Assembly: GCA_963739245.1 (NCBI GenBank)
Contig: CAVTZP010000007.1
Span: forward strand, 119,845 to 183,844
From: an uncultured delta proteobacterium
GTDB lineage: Bacteria > Chloroflexota > Dehalococcoidia > Dehalococcoidales > BS750m-G39
Length of the DNA: 64,000 nucleotides
Direction of reading: 5' to 3'
Shown in pieces: positions 14,155-61,570 of the stretch; position 1 is the stretch's first letter, and the number at the start of each line of letters is the position of its first letter. The notes beneath the pieces were generated by a model. It worked only from the letters and a program-made list of their open reading frames with translations. It was not told the DNA's origin and did no database searches. Position numbers and translations under genes: made by a program.

Positions 14155-14229
<75 letters not shown>

Positions 14230-16058: not shown

Positions 16059-16136
16059 GGTGAGTGTCGCCTAGTGGTTTAAGGCGCCAGGTTGTGGCCC
16101 TGGAGAACGAGGGTTCGAATCCCTCCACTCACCCCA
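16059..16136 (+). tRNA. tRNA-His (anticodon GTG) with encoded G-1 and CCA
   Basis: G-GTGAGTG-TC-GCCT-AGTGGTTTA-AGGC-G-CCAGG-TTGTGGC-CCTGG-AGAAC-GAGGG-TTCGAAT-CCCTC-CACTCAC-C-CCA. The extra 5-prime G opposite discriminator C is the tRNA-His hallmark. Confidence 0.9.
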
Positions 16137-16213: not shown

Positions 16214-16289
16214 GCGCCTATAGCTCAGCGGATAGAGCATCGGTCTTCGGAACCGAGGGTCGTGGGTTCGAATCCCTCTAGGCGCGCCA
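16214..16289 (+). tRNA. tRNA-Arg (anticodon TCG), CCA encoded
   Basis: GCGCCTA-TA-GCTC-AGCGGATA-GAGC-A-TCGGT-CTTCGGA-ACCGA-GGGTC-GTGGG-TTCGAAT-CCCTC-TAGGCGC-G-CCA. There is one T:T mismatch in the T-stem. Confidence 0.85.
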
Positions 16290-31131: not shown

Positions 31132-31146
31132 AGATTTTCTCTTAAC

Positions 31147-31290
31147 CTCACCCCCTCTTAAACACCCCAGTTAAAGCGAAGGGCACGGGATACAACCTTT
31201 CCCCAACAAATCACGAGATTGAGATACGAAGCCTCAGAGGGCGGGAGGGTGGGAAGAAAGACCGCTGAAAAAAGGGGGGTAGGGGGATGG
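31147..31290 (+). repeat. intergenic repeat, copy B (G-rich core module only, double hairpin absent)
   Basis: 31147-31262 aligns with 55196-55204 plus 55267-55373 (ctcaccccc|tcttaaacaccccagtt..gggatacaacc..gagattgag..aagcctcagagggcgggagggtgggaa.aaag). A G-rich tail follows. The copy lies between the convergent genes dapA and purA. Confidence 0.8.
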
Positions 31291-31304
31291 GTTTATAAAC
31301 AATC

Positions 31305-32589
31305 CTATAAGACGGGCGTCTTCTCGATGGTCTGCTCCCGCTCCGGCCCGACACAGACAAGGTTGACCGGGCAAGAACTTAAGCTCTTCCAGTCTGGCTA
31401 CATACTGGCGAGCCTCAGCCGGCAACTGGTCGTAGTTGCGAATATCAGAAATTGGAGCTTGCCACCCCGCTAGCTCCTCATAGACTGGCTGACATCTAGC
31501 CAGGGCAGCGACGCTGGCGGGGAAGTAATCAATAGTCTTGCCATCCAGTTTATAGCCGACGCATATCTTCAGACGGGGCAAAACGTCAAGAATATCAAGG
31601 CGGGTAATTGCCGCCCCGGTAAAGCCATTAATCCTAGTGCTGAAACGAGCGGCAACGGCGTCAAACCAGCCGCAACGGCGTGGTCTACCGGTAGTGGTGC
31701 CATACTCGTGAGCCCTTTCCCGAATCAGGTCGCCGGTCTCATCATGCATTTCCGTAGGCATCGGACCACCACCCACCCTCGTGCAGTAAGCCTTGAACAC
31801 CCCCAGAATGCGGTCAACGCTGGTCGGGCTCAAGCCCGCTCCCAGGCAAGCTCCTCCCGCCAGCGGCGATGATGAGGTGGTATAGGGATAGGTGCCAAAA
31901 TCGGGGTCAAGCAAAGCCCCCTGAGCCCCCTCCAGTAAAACCAACTCCCGCCGGCTTAATAACTCCTCCAGCATTATAGTCGTCTCCCGAATGTAAGGAG
32001 CCAGACGCTCTCCATACTGGCAATACTGAGTATATACCTCATCCAGCGATAGCGGACTAACCCCATAAATCTTGGTCAAGATGGTATTCTTGTAACTAAG
32101 TATAGGACGAAGCCGCTCCAGCAACCCCTCCCTATCCAAAAGATCGCCAGCTCTGATACCCAACCTGGCTGCCTTATCGGTAAAGGCAGGACCAACGCCC
32201 TTGCGGGTTGTGCCCAGTGCCTTGCCCCCCCGCGCCTCCTCCTCCAGACCATCAAGAAGGACATGATAGGGCATAATCAGGTTAGCCCGGTCGCTGACAA
32301 ATAACCTTGAGGTATCGACACCACGCTGGTTGAGCTCGTCTATCTCGCCAATTAGCACCGCGGGGTTAATCACCACCCCATTACCGATAATACAAATAGC
32401 CTTAGGGGAAAAAATCCCCGACGGGACAAGATGCAACTTAAACTCACCAGCGGGGTTAATCACGGAATGACCGGCATTATCGCCGCCAGAAAAGCGGACT
32501 ACCACCCCCGCTTTCTGAGCCAGCAGGTCAACTACCTTGCCCTTCCCCTCATCCCCCCACTGAGCCCCAATGACAGCAATAACTGGCAT
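31305..32589 (-). pseudogene. purA: adenylosuccinate synthase, frameshift about 25 codons before the stop
   Basis: From ATG 32589 (after GAGGAGAG): MPVIAVIGAQWGDEGKGKVVDLL...GGDNAGH. The natural C-terminus SCPVNLVCVGPEREQTIEKTPVL* (stop at 31305-31307) is in another frame downstream of about 31375. The ORF track extensions at both ends translate intergenic or repeat DNA. Confidence 0.85.
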
Positions 32590-45351: not shown

Positions 45352-45927
45352 ATGAGGGTCGTTTTTCTCCAGGATGTGCCCAGGGTAGCTAAGGCCGGTG
45401 AGATAAAAGAGGTAGCCGATGGCTACGCCAGAAACTTCCTCATCCCCAAAAAACTGGCCTTGTTAGCCCAACCTCAGGCGATTAGCCAGATAGAAACAAG
45501 AGAAAGAACCAAAGCCGGGGAAGACACAGAACTAATGGCGCTGGCTCAGCAAATAGAGGGGAAGGAAATTAACCTCAAAGCCAAGGCTGGAGCCAAAGAC
45601 AGACTCTATGGTTCAATCACCAGCGCCGATATTGCCTCCGAGCTAAGCAAGAGCACCGGGCTGGTTATCGACAAGAGAAAGCTTGAACTTGAAGAGCCCA
45701 TCCGCCACCTTGGTAGCTATGAGGTGGCTATTAGACTGGCTAAAGATATTTTACCCAAGATAAGGGTTACGATAACTGAAGAAGAGACGCCGAAGGAAGA
45801 GGAAAAGCCTCCGAAGGAAAAGAAGAAGGCTCAGAAGGAAGAGAAGAAAGCACCGAAGGAGACGAAGACTCCCAAGAAAGAAAAGAAGCCTCAGAAGGAA
45901 AAGAAGCCTCAGAAGGAAAAGAGCTAA
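45352..45927 (+). CDS. rplI: 50S ribosomal protein L9 with a ~45-aa Lys/Glu/Pro-rich C-terminal extension
   Basis: MRVVFLQDVPRVAKAGEIKEVADGYARNFLIPKKLA... is canonical L9 to about residue 146. The tail is EEETPKEEEKPPKEKKKAQKEEKKAPKETKTPKKEKKPQKEKKPQKEKS. Confidence 0.9.
   Translation: MRVVFLQDVPRVAKAGEIKEVADGYARNFLIPKKLALLAQPQAISQIETRERTKAGEDTELMALAQQIEGKEINLKAKAGAKDRLYGSITSADIASELSKSTGLVIDKRKLELEEPIRHLGSYEVAIRLAKDILPKIRVTITEEETPKEEEKPPKEKKKAQKEEKKAPKETKTPKKEKKPQKEKKPQKEKS
45880..45927 (+). repeat. 18-bp tandem repeat (about 2.6 copies) encoding KKPQKE units of the L9 tail
   Basis: gaaaagaagcctcagaag at 45880-45897 and 45898-45915, followed by a partial copy. Confidence 0.85.
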
Positions 45928-53541: not shown

Positions 53542-55107
53542 CTAATCCCTTAGCTTGTAGCGCTCTATCTTGCCGGTGCTAGTCTTGGGAAGGTCTTTAA
53601 CGAACTCTATCCACCTGGGGTACTTATAAGCTGCTATGTTCTTCTTGACAAACGCTTGAATATCGCTGGACAGTTCCTCGGATGGCTGGTAGCCCTTTTT
53701 CAGCACTATGTACGCCTTAGGCTTAACCAGGTTATGCTCGTCTTTCTTAGCCACTACCGCCACCTCAAGCACCGCCGGATGGGAAACCAGGGCGTCTTCA
53801 ACCTCAATGGGGGAGACCCATATGCCACCCACCTTGAGCATGTCATCACCCCGCCCGCAGTAATAGTAGTAACCTTCGGCATCCCGATAATACTTATCTC
53901 CGGTGTCAAACCACTCGCCCAGCATAGAAGTTTTGGTCTTGTCGTGATGGCGATAGTAATAAGCGGCTATTGATTCCCCCTCCACCTGCAGAGTGCCAAC
54001 CTCACCATCAGGCACTTCGTTGCCCTTATCATCGACAATCCTAGCCTGATATCCCGGGACTATCTTACCCGAGCTTCCCGGTTTGACATCGCCGGGGCGA
54101 TTGGAAATAAAAATGTGCAACAGCTCTGTTGAGCCTATACCATCCAGGATTTCCAGCCCAAACCTCTCCTTCCACTCATAAAAGATTTCTTTTGGTAGAG
54201 CCTCACCGGCTGAGGTACAGATACGCAGGGAGGAAAGGTCGTACTTTTTCTCAGCGTCTTTTACCTCCAGCATATTGGCGTATAGCGTTGGTACACCAAA
54301 AAACACCGTAGGGTGATAGCGGTTAATGGTTGAGAATATGGTTTCCGGCCGAGGTCGGTCAGAGAGCAGAACTACCGACCCGCCGACAGCTAAGGGATAG
54401 AAGAAGCTGTTACCCAATCCGTAAGCAAAGAAGAACTTTGATGCCGAGAAGAGTACATCGTCCTGGTTAATGCCCAAGATACCTTTGGCATAGCTGTCAA
54501 TGCAACTGAAGACATCGTGCTGAAGGTGAACAGCCGCCTTGGGGACACCGGTACTGCCGGAGGTATAGTTCCAGAAAGCGGCATCCTCAAAGGTGGTATA
54601 AGCCACGTCAAGTTTATCGGAACAACGGTCGACGATATCATGGAAGGAGATGTGATAAGCCCTTGTTTTCTCGCCGACGATGATAGTGTTTTCCAGATAG
54701 AGAAGTTTCTCCTTAAAGCCCTCAATCTCCTCAATAAAATCGGCGTCGGCGATAAGGGTTCGTGCCCGACTGTTATTCAGCAGATAGCGATAGTCGTGCA
54801 TGGTATACATGTAGTTGACTGGCACCGGAATAGCGCCGATTTTTATGGCGCCGTAGAAGCTGACCATAGCTTCAGGGGAATCGTACATCACCAGCATTAC
54901 CCGCTCTTCCATATGCACTCCGAGAATTTTTAGCGCATTCCCCACCTTGTTTATCAGGCTCTGCATCTCAGCATAGGTATAGGTCTTATCCTGATAGTAT
55001 ACCGCCACCTTATCCCCCAACCCCTTTTCCACCATCTCATCGACAAGTTTCGTGGTTATGTTGTAATACTGGGGAATATAGCCCTGATATTTGTAAGGTC
55101 TTTCCAT
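53542..55107 (-). CDS. AMP-dependent acyl/aryl-CoA ligase (benzoate-CoA ligase-like family)
   Basis: WNYTSGSTGVPKAAVH (AMP-binding motif I), FFAYGLGNS, and GEWFDTGDKYYRDAEGYYYYCGRGDDMLKVGG; the C-terminus reads PKTSTGKIERYKLR. ATG 55107 follows AGGTGG. Confidence 0.8.
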   Translation of the reverse strand: MERPYKYQGYIPQYYNITTKLVDEMVEKGLGDKVAVYYQDKTYTYAEMQSLINKVGNALKILGVHMEERVMLVMYDSPEAMVSFYGAIKIGAIPVPVNYMYTMHDYRYLLNNSRARTLIADADFIEEIEGFKEKLLYLENTIIVGEKTRAYHISFHDIVDRCSDKLDVAYTTFEDAAFWNYTSGSTGVPKAAVHLQHDVFSCIDSYAKGILGINQDDVLFSASKFFFAYGLGNSFFYPLAVGGSVVLLSDRPRPETIFSTINRYHPTVFFGVPTLYANMLEVKDAEKKYDLSSLRICTSAGEALPKEIFYEWKERFGLEILDGIGSTELLHIFISNRPGDVKPGSSGKIVPGYQARIVDDKGNEVPDGEVGTLQVEGESIAAYYYRHHDKTKTSMLGEWFDTGDKYYRDAEGYYYYCGRGDDMLKVGGIWVSPIEVEDALVSHPAVLEVAVVAKKDEHNLVKPKAYIVLKKGYQPSEELSSDIQAFVKKNIAAYKYPRWIEFVKDLPKTSTGKIERYKLRD

Positions 55108-55195
55108 CTTGACCACCTACCCCGATGCTCTTTTTTATTTCCTTATTTAGTTTATAATATCTGCTCCTTTTTTACAAAAGAGCCAGCTCAACACC

Positions 55196-55400
55196 CTCAC
55201 CCCCTTAATCCCCCTCTCCCTTAAGGGAGAGGGGGAGGAGAATCAAAAAAAGAGGGGCGAAGCCCCTCTTAAACACCCCAGTTGAAACGAGGGGGTAGGG
55301 ATACAACCCTCCTCTAATAAAGTGAGAGATTGAGGGGCAAAGCCTCAGAGGGCGGGAGGGTGGGAAAAAGAAGTTTAGTGGGGAGGAGGTTGGGGGTAAA
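55196..55400 (+). repeat. intergenic repeat, copy A (full composite: double-hairpin module plus G-rich core module)
   Basis: Hairpin 1 is ccccctctcc-cttaag-ggagaggggg (55210-55235). Hairpin 2 is gaggggc-gaa-gcccctc (55252-55268). The core at 55269-55373 is shared with 31158-31262. Confidence 0.85.
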
Positions 55401-55411
55401 GTTCTATTAAA

Positions 55412-55441
55412 TTGACACCCCATTGGGCAGACCGTTAGAAT
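55412..55441 (+). promoter_or_regulatory. sigma-70-type promoter TTGACA-18-TAGAAT for the M16 peptidase gene
   Basis: TTGACA at 55412-55417 and TAGAAT at 55436-55441, about 30 nt upstream of the TTG start. Confidence 0.5.
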
Positions 55442-55471
55442 ATCATTCAACCCTGATTAAAGAGGCAAAAT

Positions 55472-56734
55472 TTGTATCAGAAGACCACTCTAGATAATGG
55501 ATTGCGTGTTATCACCGCCGAGATGCCCCACACCCGCTCGGTATCTATCTGCATCTTTATTGGCGGCGGCTCCAGATACGAGACTGAGCCACAGGCTGGC
55601 ATCTCACACTTTATTGAGCACCTCTGCTTTAAGGGTACTCAAAAGCGCTCCACCGCCAAGAAAATCTCCGAGGCAATAGAGGGGGTGGGGGGAATCATCA
55701 ACGGGGGCACCGATAAGGAACTGACCCTTTACTGGTGCAAGGTGGCTCAACCCCATTTCCCCCTAGCCCTGGATGTACTGGCGGACATGCTGCTCCACTC
55801 CAAGTTTAACCCCAAGGATATAGAAAGCGAGCGCAAGGTTATCTTTGAAGAGATTAATATGGAAAGGGATTCCCCGCAGCAGCTGGTTGACCTGCTCATT
55901 GATGAGCTTTTATGGCCAGGCCATCCCCTGGGAAGGGATATCGCTGGGAGCAAGCAGTCAGTGGCGGCCATTACTCGGGAGACGATGCTTGACTACCTGG
56001 CGCATCAGTATCTACCCAGCAACACTGTGGTCGCTATTGCCGGTGCTGGCCAGCACCAGGAGATATTAGCCGCTGTCGTCCAGGCCCTGGGTGACTGGGC
56101 TAACCTTACCCCTCACCCCGGATATTCACCATATAAAGAGCAAAAATTCCCGCGGCTACATATTGAGACGAAGGACACGGAGCAAGCCCACCTTTGCCTG
56201 GGACTAAGCGGGTTGTCCCTACTTCACCCCAAGCGTTTTACCCTTGACCTGCTTAATGTTATCCTCGGGGAGGGCATGAGCAGCCGCCTGTTTACGGAGA
56301 TTCGCGACCGGCTCGGGCTTGCCTATAGCATCCACAGCTTTGTCGACCACTTCCTTGACACTGGTTCAATTATCATCTACGCCGGCGTGGAACCCAAAAA
56401 CCTCCAACTAGCCATCACCGCTACCCTGGAACAACTTTCCCGACTCAAGGAGATAGTCCCCAAGGCTGAATTATCTAAGGCTAAGGAACTGTCAAAGGGT
56501 CGCTTACTGCTTCGCATGGAGGATAGCCGCAGTGTTGCCGGATGGGCGGGAGCACAGGAGATCCTTACCGGGCAAATCCTCAGCGTTGACCAGCTAATGT
56601 CCATTATTGACGGCATTAGCGCTGAAGAGCTCAGGCAATTAGCCCACGAGCTGCTCCTGTCAAGCCAGCTCCGCCTGGCAGTAGTTGGTCCGGTGGCTAA
56701 AGACGAGCCCTTAGATAAGCTGCTTAAGCTCTAG
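55472..56734 (+). CDS. M16 family zinc peptidase (pitrilysin/insulinase-like)
   Basis: GISHFIEHLCFKGT (inverted HxxEH zinc motif) with a downstream E residue region. 420 aa. Confidence 0.85.
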   Translation: MYQKTTLDNGLRVITAEMPHTRSVSICIFIGGGSRYETEPQAGISHFIEHLCFKGTQKRSTAKKISEAIEGVGGIINGGTDKELTLYWCKVAQPHFPLALDVLADMLLHSKFNPKDIESERKVIFEEINMERDSPQQLVDLLIDELLWPGHPLGRDIAGSKQSVAAITRETMLDYLAHQYLPSNTVVAIAGAGQHQEILAAVVQALGDWANLTPHPGYSPYKEQKFPRLHIETKDTEQAHLCLGLSGLSLLHPKRFTLDLLNVILGEGMSSRLFTEIRDRLGLAYSIHSFVDHFLDTGSIIIYAGVEPKNLQLAITATLEQLSRLKEIVPKAELSKAKELSKGRLLLRMEDSRSVAGWAGAQEILTGQILSVDQLMSIIDGISAEELRQLAHELLLSSQLRLAVVGPVAKDEPLDKLLKL

Positions 56735-56738
56735 CAAT

Positions 56739-56771
56739 AAAAAGCCGTGGCTTTAGAACCACGGCTTTTTT
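56739..56771. terminator. bidirectional intrinsic terminator between the M16 peptidase gene and groEL
   Basis: AAAAA-GCCGTGG-CTTTAGAA-CCACGGC-TTTTTT is a perfect 7-bp GC-rich stem flanked by A5 and T6. Confidence 0.8.
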
Positions 56772-56787
56772 AAATTAGCCCAGTGAT

Positions 56788-58416
<1,629 letters not shown>

Positions 58417-58440
58417 TTAAATCCTTAATTGTTAGCCCCC

Positions 58441-58785
58441 TTATTTCCTTGGGTATACTGTTTTCGGTCTGTCGCTCTCTGCTTTTTCATGCTTACCCTT
58501 TTTGGCTAGAATGTCACCCTCGCGCAGGATTATAACTTCCTCACCCTCAACCTTATACTCCGTGCCACCATACTTAGCATAGATTACTATATCACCTACC
58601 TGAACATCCATAGCTATCCGCTTTCCATCCTCAGATAGCCGACCCGGACCAACCGCCAATACCTCCCCCTCCTGGGGCTTCTCCTTGGCGGTATCGGGAA
58701 GGACAATCCCCCCTTTGGTCACCTCCTCCCGCTCAATAGGCTTAACTACTAGCCGGTCACCTAACGGCTGAAGCTTAAATGCCAT
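58441..58785 (-). CDS. groS: co-chaperonin GroES (the apparent ~20-aa C-terminal extension may be an indel artefact)
   Basis: [48 protein letters not shown]...[27 protein letters not shown]. One extra A in the A5 run would give ...ILAKKG*. Confidence 0.9.
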
Positions 58786-58824
58786 TTCCATCCTCCTTCT
58801 TCAATTCAATAACCTCGCTTCATT

Positions 58825-58851
58825 TTAGCACTCTCAGACGAAGAGTGCTAA
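58825..58851. promoter_or_regulatory. CIRCE operator (HrcA binding site) upstream of groES-groEL
   Basis: TTAGCACTC-tcagacgaa-GAGTGCTAA is a perfect match to the consensus TTAGCACTC-N9-GAGTGCTAA. Confidence 0.9.
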
Positions 58852-58856
58852 CGTCT

Positions 58857-58885
58857 ATCATAGCGCACATCGGCCTAAGTCGCAA
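58857..58885 (-). promoter_or_regulatory. sigma-70-type promoter TTGCGA-17-TATGAT for groES-groEL, 5 nt upstream of CIRCE
   Basis: On the minus strand, TTGCGA is at 58885-58880 and TATGAT at 58862-58857. Confidence 0.6.
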
Positions 58886-59000
58886 CTCAATAGGCAGCTA
58901 TTTGTGGTCAACCCAAGTCACTAGCAGGCATTTATAGCCAATAATTGCCCCTTTTCTTCCCAAATAGCACTACCCTATCTCTTCCTCAAGGGTATGCCCG

Positions 59001-59973
59001 CTAAGCCAGCTTGAGACTGGGAAACACATCCAGGTCCAAGCCGCTAGTCTTGCCTGCCTTGAGCCGGTAATAACCGCAGGCGGCAATCATGGCGGCGTTA
59101 TCGGTGCACAATATCGGCTTGGGAACCAGGACAGGGAGGGGGGAATTTTCCCGCCAGCCTTTTCCGAAGTAGCTCATTGGCGGCCACCCCACCCGCCAGC
59201 AGAATCTGCTTCACCCGCCGCTCCTTAGCCACCGCCACCGTTTTGGTAACCAGGACATCAATCACCGCCTCCTGAAAACTGGCCGCGCCGTCAGCCGCCG
59301 ATGAAATCTTCCCCGCCTCAACCAGCCGTAGCAGTGCCGTCTTAACCCCACTAAAGCTGAAGTCGCTGCTCCCCTTCAGCCAGGCACGGGGTAGCTGAAT
59401 AGAGACTGTACCCCCCTTTGCCGCCCGCTCAATAGCCGGACCGCCGGGATAACCCAAATCCAGTACTCTGGCGGCTTTGTCAAAGGCTTCACCGGCAGCG
59501 TCGTCCCGGGTTCGCCCCAGTACCACATAATCCCCATGCCCCCGCATCAAGACCAAATCGCTATGTCCCCCGGAAACAATAAGACAAACCACCGGGAATT
59601 CTATGCCATGGTTATCCAGCCAGTTGGCATAGATATGACCCTCAAGGTGATTAACCCCGCTAATCGGCAAGCCATGAGCCATGGCAACAGCCTTAGCCGC
59701 ATTCACCCCCACCAGCAATGAGCCAGCCAGACCCGGCCCAATAGTCACCGCAATACCAGATAGGTCTTCCCACCTAGTCTCAGCCATTGCCTGCTCTAGT
59801 ATCGGGATAATGGACAGGATATGCTGGCGGGAGGCGACCTCGGGAACGACCCCGCCATAGCGAGCATGGATTTCCACCTGAGAGGCAATCTGGTTGGACA
59901 GAATTTTTGTCCCGTCTTCCACCACCGCCGCCGCCGTTTCATCGCAAGAGGTCTCAATACCCAGGATTTTCAT
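59001..59973 (-). pseudogene. tsaD: tRNA N6-adenosine threonylcarbamoyltransferase TsaD, one frameshift near 59130-59190
   Basis: [18 protein letters not shown]...GVNHLEGHI...VSGGHS (59098-59973). The C-terminus [21 protein letters not shown] is in another frame (59001-59192). A run of six C on the minus strand (G6 on the plus strand) lies at the junction. Confidence 0.85.
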
Positions 59974-60008
59974 AGCATAGAATTATAGCATAGATTAAGT
60001 TTATTAAC

Positions 60009-60093
60009 CCCATCCCCTTTATCCCCTTCCCCTTAATAAGAGGAAGGGGAGGTAATAGAAAGAGGGGGCTAGCGCCCCCTCTAAACTCCCCTG
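60009..60093 (+). repeat. intergenic repeat, copy C (double-hairpin module, same orientation as copy A)
   Basis: Hairpins are ccccttcc-ccttaataag-aggaagggg and agagggggc-tagc-gccccctct, followed by ctaaactcccc. Stem changes relative to copy A are compensatory. Confidence 0.8.
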
Positions 60094-60103
60094 TATTTGC
60101 TTA

Positions 60104-60730
60104 CTAAACAAGTGGTTCTTCGGCTTCTATTTTTCTAGGTTGCAAAATATATAACGCTATTTCATGCATTTTCCCTAAAACCATAGCTAGTTCTTCAAAC
60201 TTTATTTCGTATTTTGAAATTACAACACCATCACCGTTTTTGGTAACAGTCAGCATTACTGGTTGACCTGGAGCTATCTCATCCTCTCGAATTAGCTTAT
60301 CCATATGCTCTATGGCATTTCGAACGTTTGAGACGGATCCACTTTTTGTTTCTACTAATTTTCTGAGTTCTCTTGGAAGGGCTAGTGATTCCTTTTCTGA
60401 TTTGATTCTCTCTAATAGCTTAAATAATCGTGAGACAGCATTAATGCAAGTCTCGATATGGTTTGTAAACGTAACGAAATACATACGCCGTCCATGTTTT
60501 TGCATTTCTTTTGCTGGGCGATTTGCTTCTGCTATGTCAGCAAGAATAGCTTTCCTCGCTTCGTGATATTCACCTAAGGCTTTATCTACAAGACGAATAA
60601 AGTTTCTTCGGTACAGCCCCGCTTTCCGCGTTAAGCCGGGTTCACCTATCATTACTTGAACAATCAGGCGGCCTATAAGAGAATCTAAACCTGACAAATC
60701 AGGCATTTTACATTCTGATGGAATTGCCAT
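60104..60730 (-). CDS. orphan hypothetical protein in a low-GC cassette; contains an R-N-x3-H motif (possible HEPN-like fold)
   Basis: GC is about 35-37% in my hand counts of 380 bp, against about 52-55% in the flanks. The ORF is open from 60772 (TTG), but a TGgTATAAT extended -10 box at 60767-60759 points to ATG 60730 (MAIPSECKMPDLSG...). The protein is predicted helix-rich and carries the motif SVSNVRNAIEHMDKLI. Confidence 0.55.
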   Translation of the reverse strand: MAIPSECKMPDLSGLDSLIGRLIVQVMIGEPGLTRKAGLYRRNFIRLVDKALGEYHEARKAILADIAEANRPAKEMQKHGRRMYFVTFTNHIETCINAVSRLFKLLERIKSEKESLALPRELRKLVETKSGSVSNVRNAIEHMDKLIREDEIAPGQPVMLTVTKNGDGVVISKYEIKFEELAMVLGKMHEIALYILQPRKIEAEEPLV

Positions 60731-60783
60731 AGCTTTGCTACAAAGTTTATATATCTTGATTATACCATGCAACTCGTTTATAA

Positions 60784-60866
60784 GGAGTGTTTAAGAGGGG
60801 CGAAAGCCCCTCTTTTATTTTCTTCCCCCTCTCCTTTGAAGGAGAGGGGGATTAAGGGGGTGAGGT
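60784..60866 (-). repeat. intergenic repeat, copy D (double-hairpin module, inverted relative to copies A and C)
   Basis: gtgtttaag-gaggggc-gaaa-gcccctc-ttttattttctt-ccccctctcc-tttgaa-ggagaggggg-attaagggggtgagg is the reverse complement of 55196-55280 with few changes. Confidence 0.85.
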
Positions 60867-60880
60867 TACAAGAATCTGCT

Positions 60881-60909
60881 TTGACACACCCACTAGCCGA
60901 TGCTATGAT
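60881..60909 (+). promoter_or_regulatory. sigma-70-type promoter TTGACA-17-TATGAT for the DUF2344 gene and tilS
   Basis: TTGACA at 60881-60886 and TATGAT at 60904-60909. AAGGAAAG then precedes ATG 60926. Confidence 0.6.
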
Positions 60910-60925
60910 GGCGAAAAGGAAAGAC

Positions 60926-61570
60926 ATGCAGCGACTACGAGTTAGATTCTGCCGAGGGGAAGAGATAAAGTTCATCTCCCATCTAGATATAATGCGCCTG
61001 TGGCAAAGAGCCCTAAATCGAGCCGGGATACCATTGGCTTACACTGAGGGATTTAGCCCCCACCCCAGAATATCGCTAGCCGCACCCCTTCAGGTGGGGA
61101 TAACCAGCCAGGCTGAGCTAATGGATATCTCTTGCACCAGATGGGTCTCTCCACACTTCTTCACTAACGCGGTAAACCAGCAATTGCCGCCCGGCATCAA
61201 GATACTACAGGTCTACCCGGTAGCCCCAACTATGCCCTCCCTGCAATCGCAGGTCAGCTACACCGAATATGAGGTTCAAATAGAAACAGAAAGGGATAAG
61301 GCGGATACAGAGTCAGTCCTTGCCTCTCTGCTATCGGCAAAGCAATTGCCCTGGCACCATGAGCGGGATACCGGAACCCACAGTTACGACCTGAGAGCAC
61401 TAATTGATGAACTGTGGCTTATTGACTGGCATAAAGGATATTGCACCATAGGCATGAGGTTACGCTGTGATAGCAGTGGTTCAGGCAGACCGGAGCAGGT
61501 GGCTGCCGCCCTGGGCTTCAGCTATCCCCATTCCATCCACCGCACCAAACTGATTCTAAAGACAAGCTAG
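60926..61570 (+). CDS. DUF2344 (TIGR03936) radical-SAM-associated protein
   Basis: MQRLRVRFCRGEEIKFISHLDIMRLWQRALNRAGIPLAYTEGFSPHPRISLAAPLQVG. The ORF track N-terminal extension translates the repeat and promoter. Confidence 0.7.
   Translation: MQRLRVRFCRGEEIKFISHLDIMRLWQRALNRAGIPLAYTEGFSPHPRISLAAPLQVGITSQAELMDISCTRWVSPHFFTNAVNQQLPPGIKILQVYPVAPTMPSLQSQVSYTEYEVQIETERDKADTESVLASLLSAKQLPWHHERDTGTHSYDLRALIDELWLIDWHKGYCTIGMRLRCDSSGSGRPEQVAAALGFSYPHSIHRTKLILKTS

Follow-up and report, generated by a model that had tools for sequence, protein, structure and literature searches.

The 64 000-nucleotide stretch of contig CAVTZP010000007.1 analysed here (the window) contains three copies of an intergenic repeat, X, and two half copies of a larger repeat, Y, which together represent one family across uncultured Dehalococcoidales. 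The family appears to be genuine, lineage-wide and not previously described. We propose, with a probability of roughly 0.65, that X (∼90 nt) and Y (∼200–250 nt) are dispensable mosaic repeats, that X follows the triplex design found in the BoxC or potential intrastrand triplex (PIT) repeats and that a boundary or insulator effect is its most likely influence on the host. By its design, the closest known kind is BoxC/PIT/TM_ECO, within the wider world of repetitive extragenic palindromic (REP) sequences and bacterial interspersed mosaic elements (BIMEs).

The X consensus, derived from 114 oriented copies, is ∼90 nt long. On the C-rich strand it reads, from its left end, (tgTTTAtctA)ACCTCACCCCC-TKTA, then hairpin 1 (T-CCCCCTCTCC, a loop of 3–60 nt and GGAGAGGGGG-A), a spacer of 8–12 nt of A, T and G, and hairpin 2 (AAGAGGGGC-NNN(N)-GCCCCTCTT) followed by AAAC-N-CCCC. 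Both stems are strictly homopurine·homopyrimidine, and beside each lies a mirror copy of that stem's purine arm: on the left, the flank repeats the 5′ arm of hairpin 1 in mirror image (CCTCACCCCC, TTAAT, CCCCCTCTCC), and the right flank mirrors hairpin 2. These flanks, which belong to the hairpins, had been missed in a first-pass annotation of the same stretch. Along the G-rich strand, X runs from third strand 2 through purine arm 2 and pyrimidine arm 2 (hairpin 2) and the T-rich spacer of 8–12 nt to hairpin 1, in which pyrimidine arm 1 and purine arm 1 precede third strand 1; seen as triplex motifs, a class I motif is joined to a class II motif by a T-rich spacer. Information content rises at aACCtCACCCCC and stops after TTAAAC-N-CCCC, with nothing conserved beyond either end, and conservation ends exactly at the ends of both third strands. 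The ends of X carry a weak TGTTTA…TAAACA pair. A promoter built into X was considered and rejected, no conserved −35 or −10 sequence being present beyond the left end. The copies in the window and their parts are as follows.

Copy A, X element: 55191–55280, + strand (C-rich strand on +); covariance-model score 81.8 bits, model positions 1–89.
Copy A, hairpin-1 unit: 55193–55236, − strand; class II purine-motif intrastrand-triplex motif of 13 triads with 0 mismatches (ITxF-like scan), TCCCCCTCTCCCT-TA-AGGGAGAGGGGGA-TTA-AGGGGGTGAGGGT.
Copy A, hairpin-2 unit: 55250–55279, − strand; class I motif of 8 perfect triads, GGGGTGTT-T-AAGAGGGG-CTTCG-CCCCTCTT.
Half Y element (right half) joined to copy A: 55263–55400, + strand; middle part, G-rich arm and G-rich end ggggaggaggttggggg.
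G-quadruplex motif GGGCGGGAGGGTGGG in the Y arm of copy A: 55350–55364, + strand; from a motif search.
Copy B, Y element without left arm and hairpin 2: 31144–31292, + strand; Y profile positions 65–196.
G-quadruplex motif GGGCGGGAGGGTGGG in copy B: 31239–31253, + strand; from a motif search.
Copy C, X element of the CCCCTTCC/GGAAGGGG subtype: 60004–60092, + strand; covariance-model score 81.8 bits, fold z = −4.3.
Copy D, X element with its C-rich strand on −: 60783–60869, − strand; covariance-model score 85.3 bits, fold z = −6.2 to −6.4.

The first-pass annotation had described four intergenic copies of a GC-rich element with two hairpins. Its hairpins were read correctly: hairpin 1 is ccccctctcc/ggagaggggg in A and D and ccccttcc/ggaagggg in C, and hairpin 2 is gaggggc-gaa-gcccctc in A, gaggggc-gaaa-gcccctc in D (read on the + strand) and agagggggc-tagc-gccccctct in C. 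All copies are indeed intergenic, and PLSLKGEG, cited there as a spurious peptide, correctly translates ccc ctc tcc ctt aag gga gag ggg. The two-hairpin description suits A, C and D; the copy placed at 31147–31290 (B) contains neither hairpin 1 nor hairpin 2 and shares with A only a 10-nt left end, the tcttaaacacccc junction and a ∼107-nt right-hand module. Similarly, 55196–55400 had been taken as one copy; the sequence was given correctly, but the stretch is a composite of X (to 55280) and half of a Y rather than a single element.

A repeat search of the window linked a 53-nt arm of A to D (89% complementary) and A to B through a 107-nt direct repeat that is 81% identical and occupies 31152–31258 in B. 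Three motif searches with short end motifs each gave 2–3 matches in the window compared with 0–0.33 expected, and a covariance-model scan of the window gave no full X copy besides A, C and D. Folded as DNA with programs that consider Watson–Crick pairs only, these three reach −21 to −24 kcal/mol on either strand with z = −4 to −6.4 (the X element of A, −24.2 kcal/mol, z = −4.98), and the Y module (copy B and the right half of A) shows no self-fold (z = +0.19 and +0.18). Copy A has an AMP-binding gene on one side and the divergently oriented M16 peptidase gene on the other, B lies between dapA and purA, which converge, C between the start of tsaD and the stop of a 222-aa open reading frame (ORF), and D between the start of that ORF and a DUF2344 gene.

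The repeat is not confined to this contig. A search with the exact pattern GAGGGGC-N3-4-GCCCCTCTTAAAC (20 bases) over one genome per species matched at least 119 stretches of DNA, in agreement with the proposal of a dispersed intergenic family. Among the matches listed, 117 of 119, from a source of ∼70 metagenome-assembled genomes (MAGs), are labelled Dehalococcoid- or Chloroflex-; the remaining two are a 1.5-kb contig labelled 'Planctomycetota' and one labelled 'Deltaproteobacteria'. Blocks of 8 kb around the pattern matches made up the locus sample (labelled L001 and so on, for example L010 and L035), and proteins of the window share 63–88% identity with proteins from these loci, which makes an uncultured member of this group the probable source of the window. 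A covariance model trained on nine clean X copies found further copies, giving 223 matches with E < 0.001 in 0.73 Mb, ∼150 of them strong; the covariation and orientation statistics below rest on the best 150 of the 223. Many matches lie at contig ends, so the repeats probably break assemblies. The exact hairpin-2 pattern also occurs in ten 'viral' contigs from IMG/VR (L122–L131), six of which share genes 78–84% identical with the cellular loci L017, L033 or L091; these contigs may be prophage regions or misclassified cellular DNA. In an Rfam scan of the whole window at the gathering threshold only three tRNAs passed (14158–14229 on the − strand, and 16060–16133 and 16214–16286 on the + strand), and in E-value scans of A, C/D and a full Y the best generic hairpin matches scored 19–28 bits against thresholds of 58–65. 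Literature searches gave no paper linking Dehalococcoid- names with REP sequences or miniature inverted-repeat transposable elements (MITEs) and none with the stem sequences in a relevant context.

The stems are maintained by compensatory change and not by coding, as the first-pass annotation had argued. Standard pairs are formed by 97.5% of stem cells, compared with 89.5% in shuffles and 66–76% with slid partner columns; both sides have changed in 19 of the 22 pairs, and double-change cells number 270 against 53.5 in shuffles, these figures coming from an alignment that is fitted to the model and from copies that share ancestry. Hairpin-1 subtypes include CCCCCTCTCC, CCCCTTCCCC, CCCCCTTCCC, CCCCCTCCC and CCCTCTCCCC; in copies not selected by the pattern, hairpin 2 varies as GAGAGGC/GCCTCTC, GGGAGGC/GCCTCCC, GAAGGGGC/GCCCCTTC and GAGGGAC/GTCCCTC. 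Nearly all of the compensatory changes are from C–G to U–A, which keeps one arm all-pyrimidine and the other all-purine.

The flanks vary with the arms that they mirror. For hairpin 1, CCCCTCACCC accompanies GGGGAGAGGG, CCCTCCCCC accompanies GGGAGGGGG and CCCCATCCCC accompanies GGGGAAGGGG; for hairpin 2, GAGGGAC is found with CTCCCT, GAGAGGC with CTCTCC and GAAGGGGC with CTTCCC. The hairpin-1 flank matches its own arm at 8.66 of 10 positions and the arms of other subtypes at 7.63 (permutation over 11 subtypes, p = 0.004), and a direct (non-mirror) repeat register was rejected at 7.16 of 10. In the covariance-model alignment the hairpin-1 mirror match is 71.0%, compared with 65.5% in whole-flank shuffles (reached in 0 of 2000) and 44–59% in slid registers; a reversed flank register, at 57.6%, is again worse. 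The corresponding values for hairpin 2 are 4.77 of 6 positions against 3.99 (p = 0.03, 5 subtypes) and 63.3% against 60.4% in shuffles (15 of 2000), which also exceeds the slides and the reversed flank. The odd A of the flank corresponds, on the G-rich strand, to a T opposite an A–T pair, which the purine triplex motif allows. Both a solo hairpin 2 with a TTAAAC-N-CCCC flank and a solo hairpin 1 with a GGGGGTGAGG flank occur (loci L022, L040, L048, L085, L090 and L112; L009 at 1254–1300), indicating that a hairpin and its mirror flank act together as an independent module.

A triplex-motif scan of the loci and the window (0.96 Mb; stems of 8–15, loops of 1–6 nt and at most one mismatched triad) gave 140 class II motifs, most commonly with 13 triads, compared with none in each of three block shuffles. 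In the window such motifs are found in A, C and D only (C, 60006–60050 on the − strand with 13 triads and 1 mismatch; D, 60824–60867 on the + strand with 13 triads and 0 mismatches). Class I motifs, formed by hairpin 2 and its flank, number 96 perfect instances against none in shuffles, the commonest having 8 triads. The triplex design is established at the level of sequence and the corresponding folds are predicted from it.

Full copies of Y (L014, L103, L087 and others) are imperfect palindromes of about 200–250 nt. In the left part a C-rich left arm (cttttCCCACCCACCACCCttttaagg) is followed by hairpin 2 with TTAAAC-ACCCC; the remainder comprises small middle hairpins, a G-rich right arm and inverted G-rich and C-rich ends, and the C-rich and G-rich arms are each ∼25–45 nt long. 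A four-tract G3 motif is present in the right arm of 10 of 13 near full-length copies, with loops that vary (T/TTTT/T, A/CATT/T, C/A/T), and the equivalent C-tract motif in the left arm of 1 of 13; since the G3 tracts are kept on the right and the C tracts are not kept on the left, a conserved G-quadruplex motif is indicated rather than simple pairing of the arms. In the window, four tracts of at least three G separated by loops of 1–7 nt are found at 55350–55364 and 31239–31253. Copy A can be read as an X that shares its hairpin 2 with the right half of a Y, and the Y profile aligns 55194–55400 to profile positions 6–195. In copy B the left end aacctcaccccc and tcttaaacacccc are followed by the middle part, the G-rich arm and an inverted end, ggggggtagggggatggg, which is an inverted copy of its own left end. 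Copy B is plausibly a Y that lost its left arm and hairpin 2 through recombination between CCCC(C)TC repeats.

Comparison of orthologous intergenic sites shows that X and Y copies are dispensable DNA insertions, being present, absent, replaced or nested from one relative to the next, with hot spots. The groEL–M16 interval of the window is 54 nt long and holds groEL's own terminator but no repeat; in L035 an X has been added after the same terminator, and at the L010 site nested copies form a cluster whose right junction is the same old one. The groEL intrinsic terminator itself (56745–56775 of the window; aaaaaagccgtggttctaaagccacggcttttt) is common to the convergent M16 gene and is kept in both L035 and L010. 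Next to copies A and D, outside the repeats, lie two promoter-like sites that provide context.

Promoter-like site TTGACA-18-TAGAAT of the M16 peptidase gene: 55412–55441, + strand; 11/12 matches.
Promoter-like site TTGACA-17-TATGAT of the DUF2344 gene: 60881–60909, + strand; 11/12 matches.

The first of these lies just past the Y end of copy A and the same promoter is kept in L010, where at least four copies precede it. The second lies 14 nt past the third-strand end of D; in L102 the same promoter follows a different X subtype (CTTCC-type, compared with CTCTCC-type in the window). The inserts between tsaD and DUF2344 also differ, with the 222-aa ORF in the window and a ∼420-aa ORF in L102 (unannotated; CorC/CBS-like by eye). 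Intergenic regions of L010 (2800–3420 on the − strand and 1290–1490) are packed with nested X units, and a junction recurs in L010, L002 and L119 in which gNNttttattggtAACCCTATCCCC… comes after an orphan …ACCTCACCCCCTTTA. An older unit seems to receive new ones at or next to the loop that separates its purine arm from its third strand; alternatively, copies recombine at this point. In several species (L027, L054, L106 and L116) orthologous X copies lie ∼100 nt upstream of the gene for a ∼1155-aa protein, which is unannotated and Mfd-like by eye only, and share an extended hairpin-1 stem (ctcctgtgacacc…gtcaggag); together with the decay of the L054 copy, this argues for vertical inheritance with some decay. 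No target-site duplication was visible at the junctions compared, where the divergence of the relatives leaves no clean empty site.

The orientation of X relative to genes is biased. Of the genes next to the hairpin-1 end, 84 point away from X, in the G-strand sense, and 42 do not (p = 0.0002); the next gene start lies at a median of 69.5 nt. Co-directional gene contexts are divided 43:14 (p = 0.00015), and among 103 classified copies 29 lie between divergent genes and 17 between convergent genes. An upstream gene reads into X in 70 of 121 copies (p = 0.10), A and D being between divergent genes. A replication-strand cause was rejected, since GC skew predicts orientation less well (65:47, p = 0.11) than gene direction does (71:41, p = 0.006). 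Hairpin 2 of A, C and D provides the three best terminator-like hits in 55000–61000, always on the G strand (A, 55270–55250 on the − strand, followed by TTTTTGATTC; C, 60082–60061 on the − strand; D, 60793–60814 on the + strand, followed by TTATTTTCTT). That the G strand of X lies in the sense of a gene starting at a median of ∼70 nt past the hairpin-1 end makes a boundary or insulator the likeliest effect on the host. In such a scheme, the G-rich strand would fold, in single-stranded or negatively supercoiled DNA, into hairpins capped by purine-motif triplexes, and selection, or the copying machinery, may act on this triplex-capped fold. Hairpin 2 with its T-run could end transcripts that read the G strand, and a boundary might result from a stop to read-through, then a structured block and then the next promoter.

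Several points weigh against this interpretation. The compensatory changes from C–G to U–A can be explained by mutation through G·U intermediates alone, and the mirror covariation is modest, resting on ∼5–11 independent subtypes of low-complexity sequence. The class I motif requires a 1-nt turn, and G-rich purine-motif triplexes compete with G-quadruplexes. The decayed L054 copy carries unpaired substitutions in both hairpins. The locus sample was chosen by the exact hairpin-2 pattern, and the orientation counts depend on crude longest-ORF gene calls. Termination cannot be the general role, since divergent genes border 29 of the 103 classified copies and groEL, next to a copy, still has a terminator of its own. 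For TM_ECO, in vivo dimethyl sulfate (DMS) footprinting gave no stable triplex (PMC4666352), and the account of earlier work given in the same paper has PIT elements without promoter or terminator activity, which makes a selfish or neutral element with an insertion bias fully possible.

Selection at the RNA level, with X as a terminator, a stabiliser of mRNA 3′ ends or a leader, is unlikely. It would suit the terminator-like hairpin 2 and T-run on the G strand, the strong covariation, an orientation that tracks gene direction over GC skew and the co-directional excess; however, no Rfam family reaches threshold, about one third of the copies are in the other orientation, more than a quarter of those classified lie between divergent genes, and a copy lies downstream of groEL's own terminator at a site that has none in the window. 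Such a role would also leave the conserved mirror flanks unexplained. Purine-motif triplexes do not form in RNA (PMC4666352). A further alternative, in which X and Y are G-quadruplex/i-motif elements whose quadruplexes are built from the four G-tracts on the G strand of X and the four G3 tracts in the arm of Y, with mirror symmetry as a by-product, seems decidedly unlikely. The retention of the G3 motif in the Y right arm, the G4 and G5 tracts in both flanks and both purine arms of X and the quadruplex-forming repeat known in Xanthomonas and Nostoc (PMC4692102) speak for it, but two of the four X tracts are tied up within very stable hairpins, a quadruplex could form without the A and T positions of the flank tracking those of the arm, and NMR showed TM_ECO to be a triplex and not a quadruplex (PMC4666352).

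The first-pass annotation had called the repeats REP/MITE-like; the closest known kind, BoxC/PIT/TM_ECO, is more specific than that. Classical REP/REPIN elements (REPINs being REP doublets forming hairpins), in which the hairpins would be REPs copied by a single-copy REP-associated tyrosine transposase (RAYT) acting on single-stranded DNA, are very improbable here. X resembles them as a short GC-rich palindrome that occurs alone, paired or in BIME-like clusters, with sequence kept across many species and some sites vertical, as upstream of the Mfd-like gene. The GTAG/CGTC tag that defines REP/REPIN–RAYT elements (Di Nocera et al., 2013; PMC3733652) is, however, missing from the feet of both hairpins (hairpin 1, TTTA/TCCCCC…GGGGGA/A; hairpin 2, AAGAGGGGC…GCCCCTCTT/AAAC, slashes marking the feet). 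The window had been said to lack a RAYT or other transposase. A phmmer search with E. coli RayT against 2109 ORFs (minimum length 80 aa) taken from the window and the repeat-rich loci (0.87 Mb) gave no match (best E = 0.84). All-against-all clustering of the proteins near copies in the 0.87 Mb gave housekeeping families only and no transposase-like family, the largest being the ∼1155-aa protein (11 loci); no protein family is enriched beside copies, and seven genes bracketed by inverted X pairs in related loci, considered as transposases, look like housekeeping genes and were rejected. A MITE, meaning an insertion sequence with an internal deletion that a DDE or other transposase mobilises in trans through its terminal inverted repeats, is unproven and, in our estimate, quite unlikely. 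In its favour, Y is a long imperfect palindrome with inverted ends, copy B ends in its inverted left end, copies are present, absent or nested, and X has its weak terminal TGTTTA…TAAACA pair. The junctions and the protein clustering, however, yield neither a target-site duplication nor a parent insertion sequence, X conservation ends at third strands rather than at terminal inverted repeats, and the mosaics resemble recombination between copies as much as insertion. More speculatively, and with low probability, X could be a self-folding double-triplex DNA device: on unwinding of the G-rich strand the mirror third strands would cap both hairpins, giving a ∼90-nt block that stalls polymerases and helicases and that marks and insulates the border between a transcription unit and the promoter after it, and a copying process acting on single-stranded DNA would recognise the fold rather than a sequence tag. 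This would explain why a three-block design with T opposite A recurs in Proteobacteria (BoxC), Cyanobacteria and Chloroflexota without a transposase, and Y would bring in a G-quadruplex to a similar end.

The 222-aa ORF bracketed by the inverted copies C and D (60104–60772 on the − strand; probable start MAIPSECK…) lies in a lower-GC stretch and is not found at the orthologous tsaD–DUF2344 site of L102. It has no convincing match in Pfam, NCBIfam, PHROGs or PADLOC, and a homologue in L111 (65% identical) lies in AT-rich DNA without X flanks; on both grounds it was rejected as a candidate transposase. It looks like accessory cargo at a repeat hot spot. An apparent overlap of copy B with purA is an artefact of a one-base frameshift that prolongs the ORF, the in-frame stop being at 31305–31307 after …VGPEREQTIEKTPVL. 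Within the 3′ end of purA (31305–31420 on the − strand) an apparent +1 frameshift lies near cttAagt (about 31375–31385); the long ORF reads …ARLEELKFLPGQP… into repeat B and the other frame gives the canonical …CPVNLVCVGPEREQTIEKTPVL before that stop, the frameshift being either a sequencing error or real. Elsewhere in the window, six A/G-rich units, each 18 or 21 nt long and repeated in tandem (AAGAAGAGACGCCGAAGGAAGAGG…; 45779–45922 on the + strand), probably encode a Lys/Glu/Pro-rich low-complexity protein segment.

Among known systems, REP sequences and BIMEs (PMC3733652) share with X the form of short GC-rich extragenic palindromes occurring as singles, dimers and mosaic clusters, a plausible number of hundreds of copies, long vertical persistence and possible roles in termination or mRNA stability. 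X differs from REP/REPIN–RAYT systems in the missing tag, in that the loci and window searched gave no RAYT, in its many copies between divergent genes and in its homopurine·homopyrimidine stems with mirror flanks. Bacterial MITEs (Correia, ERIC/IRU, RU) are, like X and Y, small, non-coding, present or absent at orthologous sites and situated beside promoters or terminators, and like Y they can fold into a long stem-loop; X and Y differ from them in showing no target-site duplication at the junctions compared, in that the 8-kb blocks gave no cognate insertion sequence and, in X, in the lack of real terminal inverted repeats. The quadruplex-forming repeat of Xanthomonas and Nostoc (PMC4692102) is likewise a lineage-enriched, multi-copy G-rich motif able to form non-B DNA, but it is a tandem simple-sequence repeat, whereas here a single G-quadruplex motif lies in one arm of a dispersed palindromic element.

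An E. coli BoxC locus reads CCCTCACCC-cga-CCCTCTCCC-aca-GGGAGAGGG … CCCCTCGCCCC-ttt-GGGGAGAGGG-tta-GGGTGAGGGG. Knowledge of the BoxC/PIT/TM repeats of E. coli goes back to the 1990s, yet they have no established function or mode of spreading. Holder et al. (2015; PMC4666352) classify the TM_ECO pattern, CCCTCNCCC-N3-6-GGGNGAGGG-N3-GGGNGAGGG, as an intrastrand triplex of the class II purine motif, and by circular dichroism and NMR it folds stably in vitro; purine-motif triplexes of this kind (G·G–C, A·A–T, T·A–T) form in DNA. The same work counts 23 copies in K-12, always intergenic and with no mobility genes nearby, associates the motifs with local genome variability and cites the PIT repeats from Hoyne & Maher (2000). 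We find the TM_ECO motif in 5414 of 5426 E. coli genomes, at a median of 18 places per genome.

X shares with these repeats, which occur in E. coli and other Proteobacteria, the succession, on one strand, of a pyrimidine arm, a loop of 3–6 nt, a purine arm, a loop of 3–5 nt and a mirror purine segment; A, C and D conform to this three-block design with 0, 1 and 0 mismatches, respectively. The triad rule (G·G–C, A·A–T, T·A–T) is the same, as is the oddity of a T opposite A (TCA for TCT) in the third strand of BoxC. Both are GC-rich, multi-copy and intergenic without mobility genes nearby, and both have variable loops on conserved stems and frequently form inverted pairs or clusters. Loci that carry X may also be rearranged between relatives as those of E. 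coli are, on the anecdotal evidence of the groEL–M16 and tsaD–DUF2344 sites. No window copy matches the exact TM_ECO pattern, which in the related loci occurs only in L111 and the viral contig L123, and the whole of copy D (60780–60869) gave a best E of 9 in a BLAST search of the 5426 E. coli genomes; membership in the BoxC/PIT kind is therefore by design and not by the E. coli consensus. X further differs in belonging to a different phylum, in a class II motif of 13 rather than 9 triads, in an additional unit of class I (8 triads) that shares the strand and is linked by a T-rich spacer, which makes hairpin 2 terminator-like, in an orientation bias of 84:42 where none is reported for E. coli BoxC/PIT/TM, and in the larger Y variant with its G-quadruplex motif. 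For annotation, X and Y inflate the intergenic regions of Dehalococcoidales MAGs and yield spurious ORFs of the PLSLKGEG type. As a larger and more diverse family of the BoxC design in a distant, mostly uncultured order, they form a natural comparison set, in which the longer motifs (13 + 8 triads compared with 9), co-varying third strands and orientation bias allow tests of selection on the triplex fold and of its effect.

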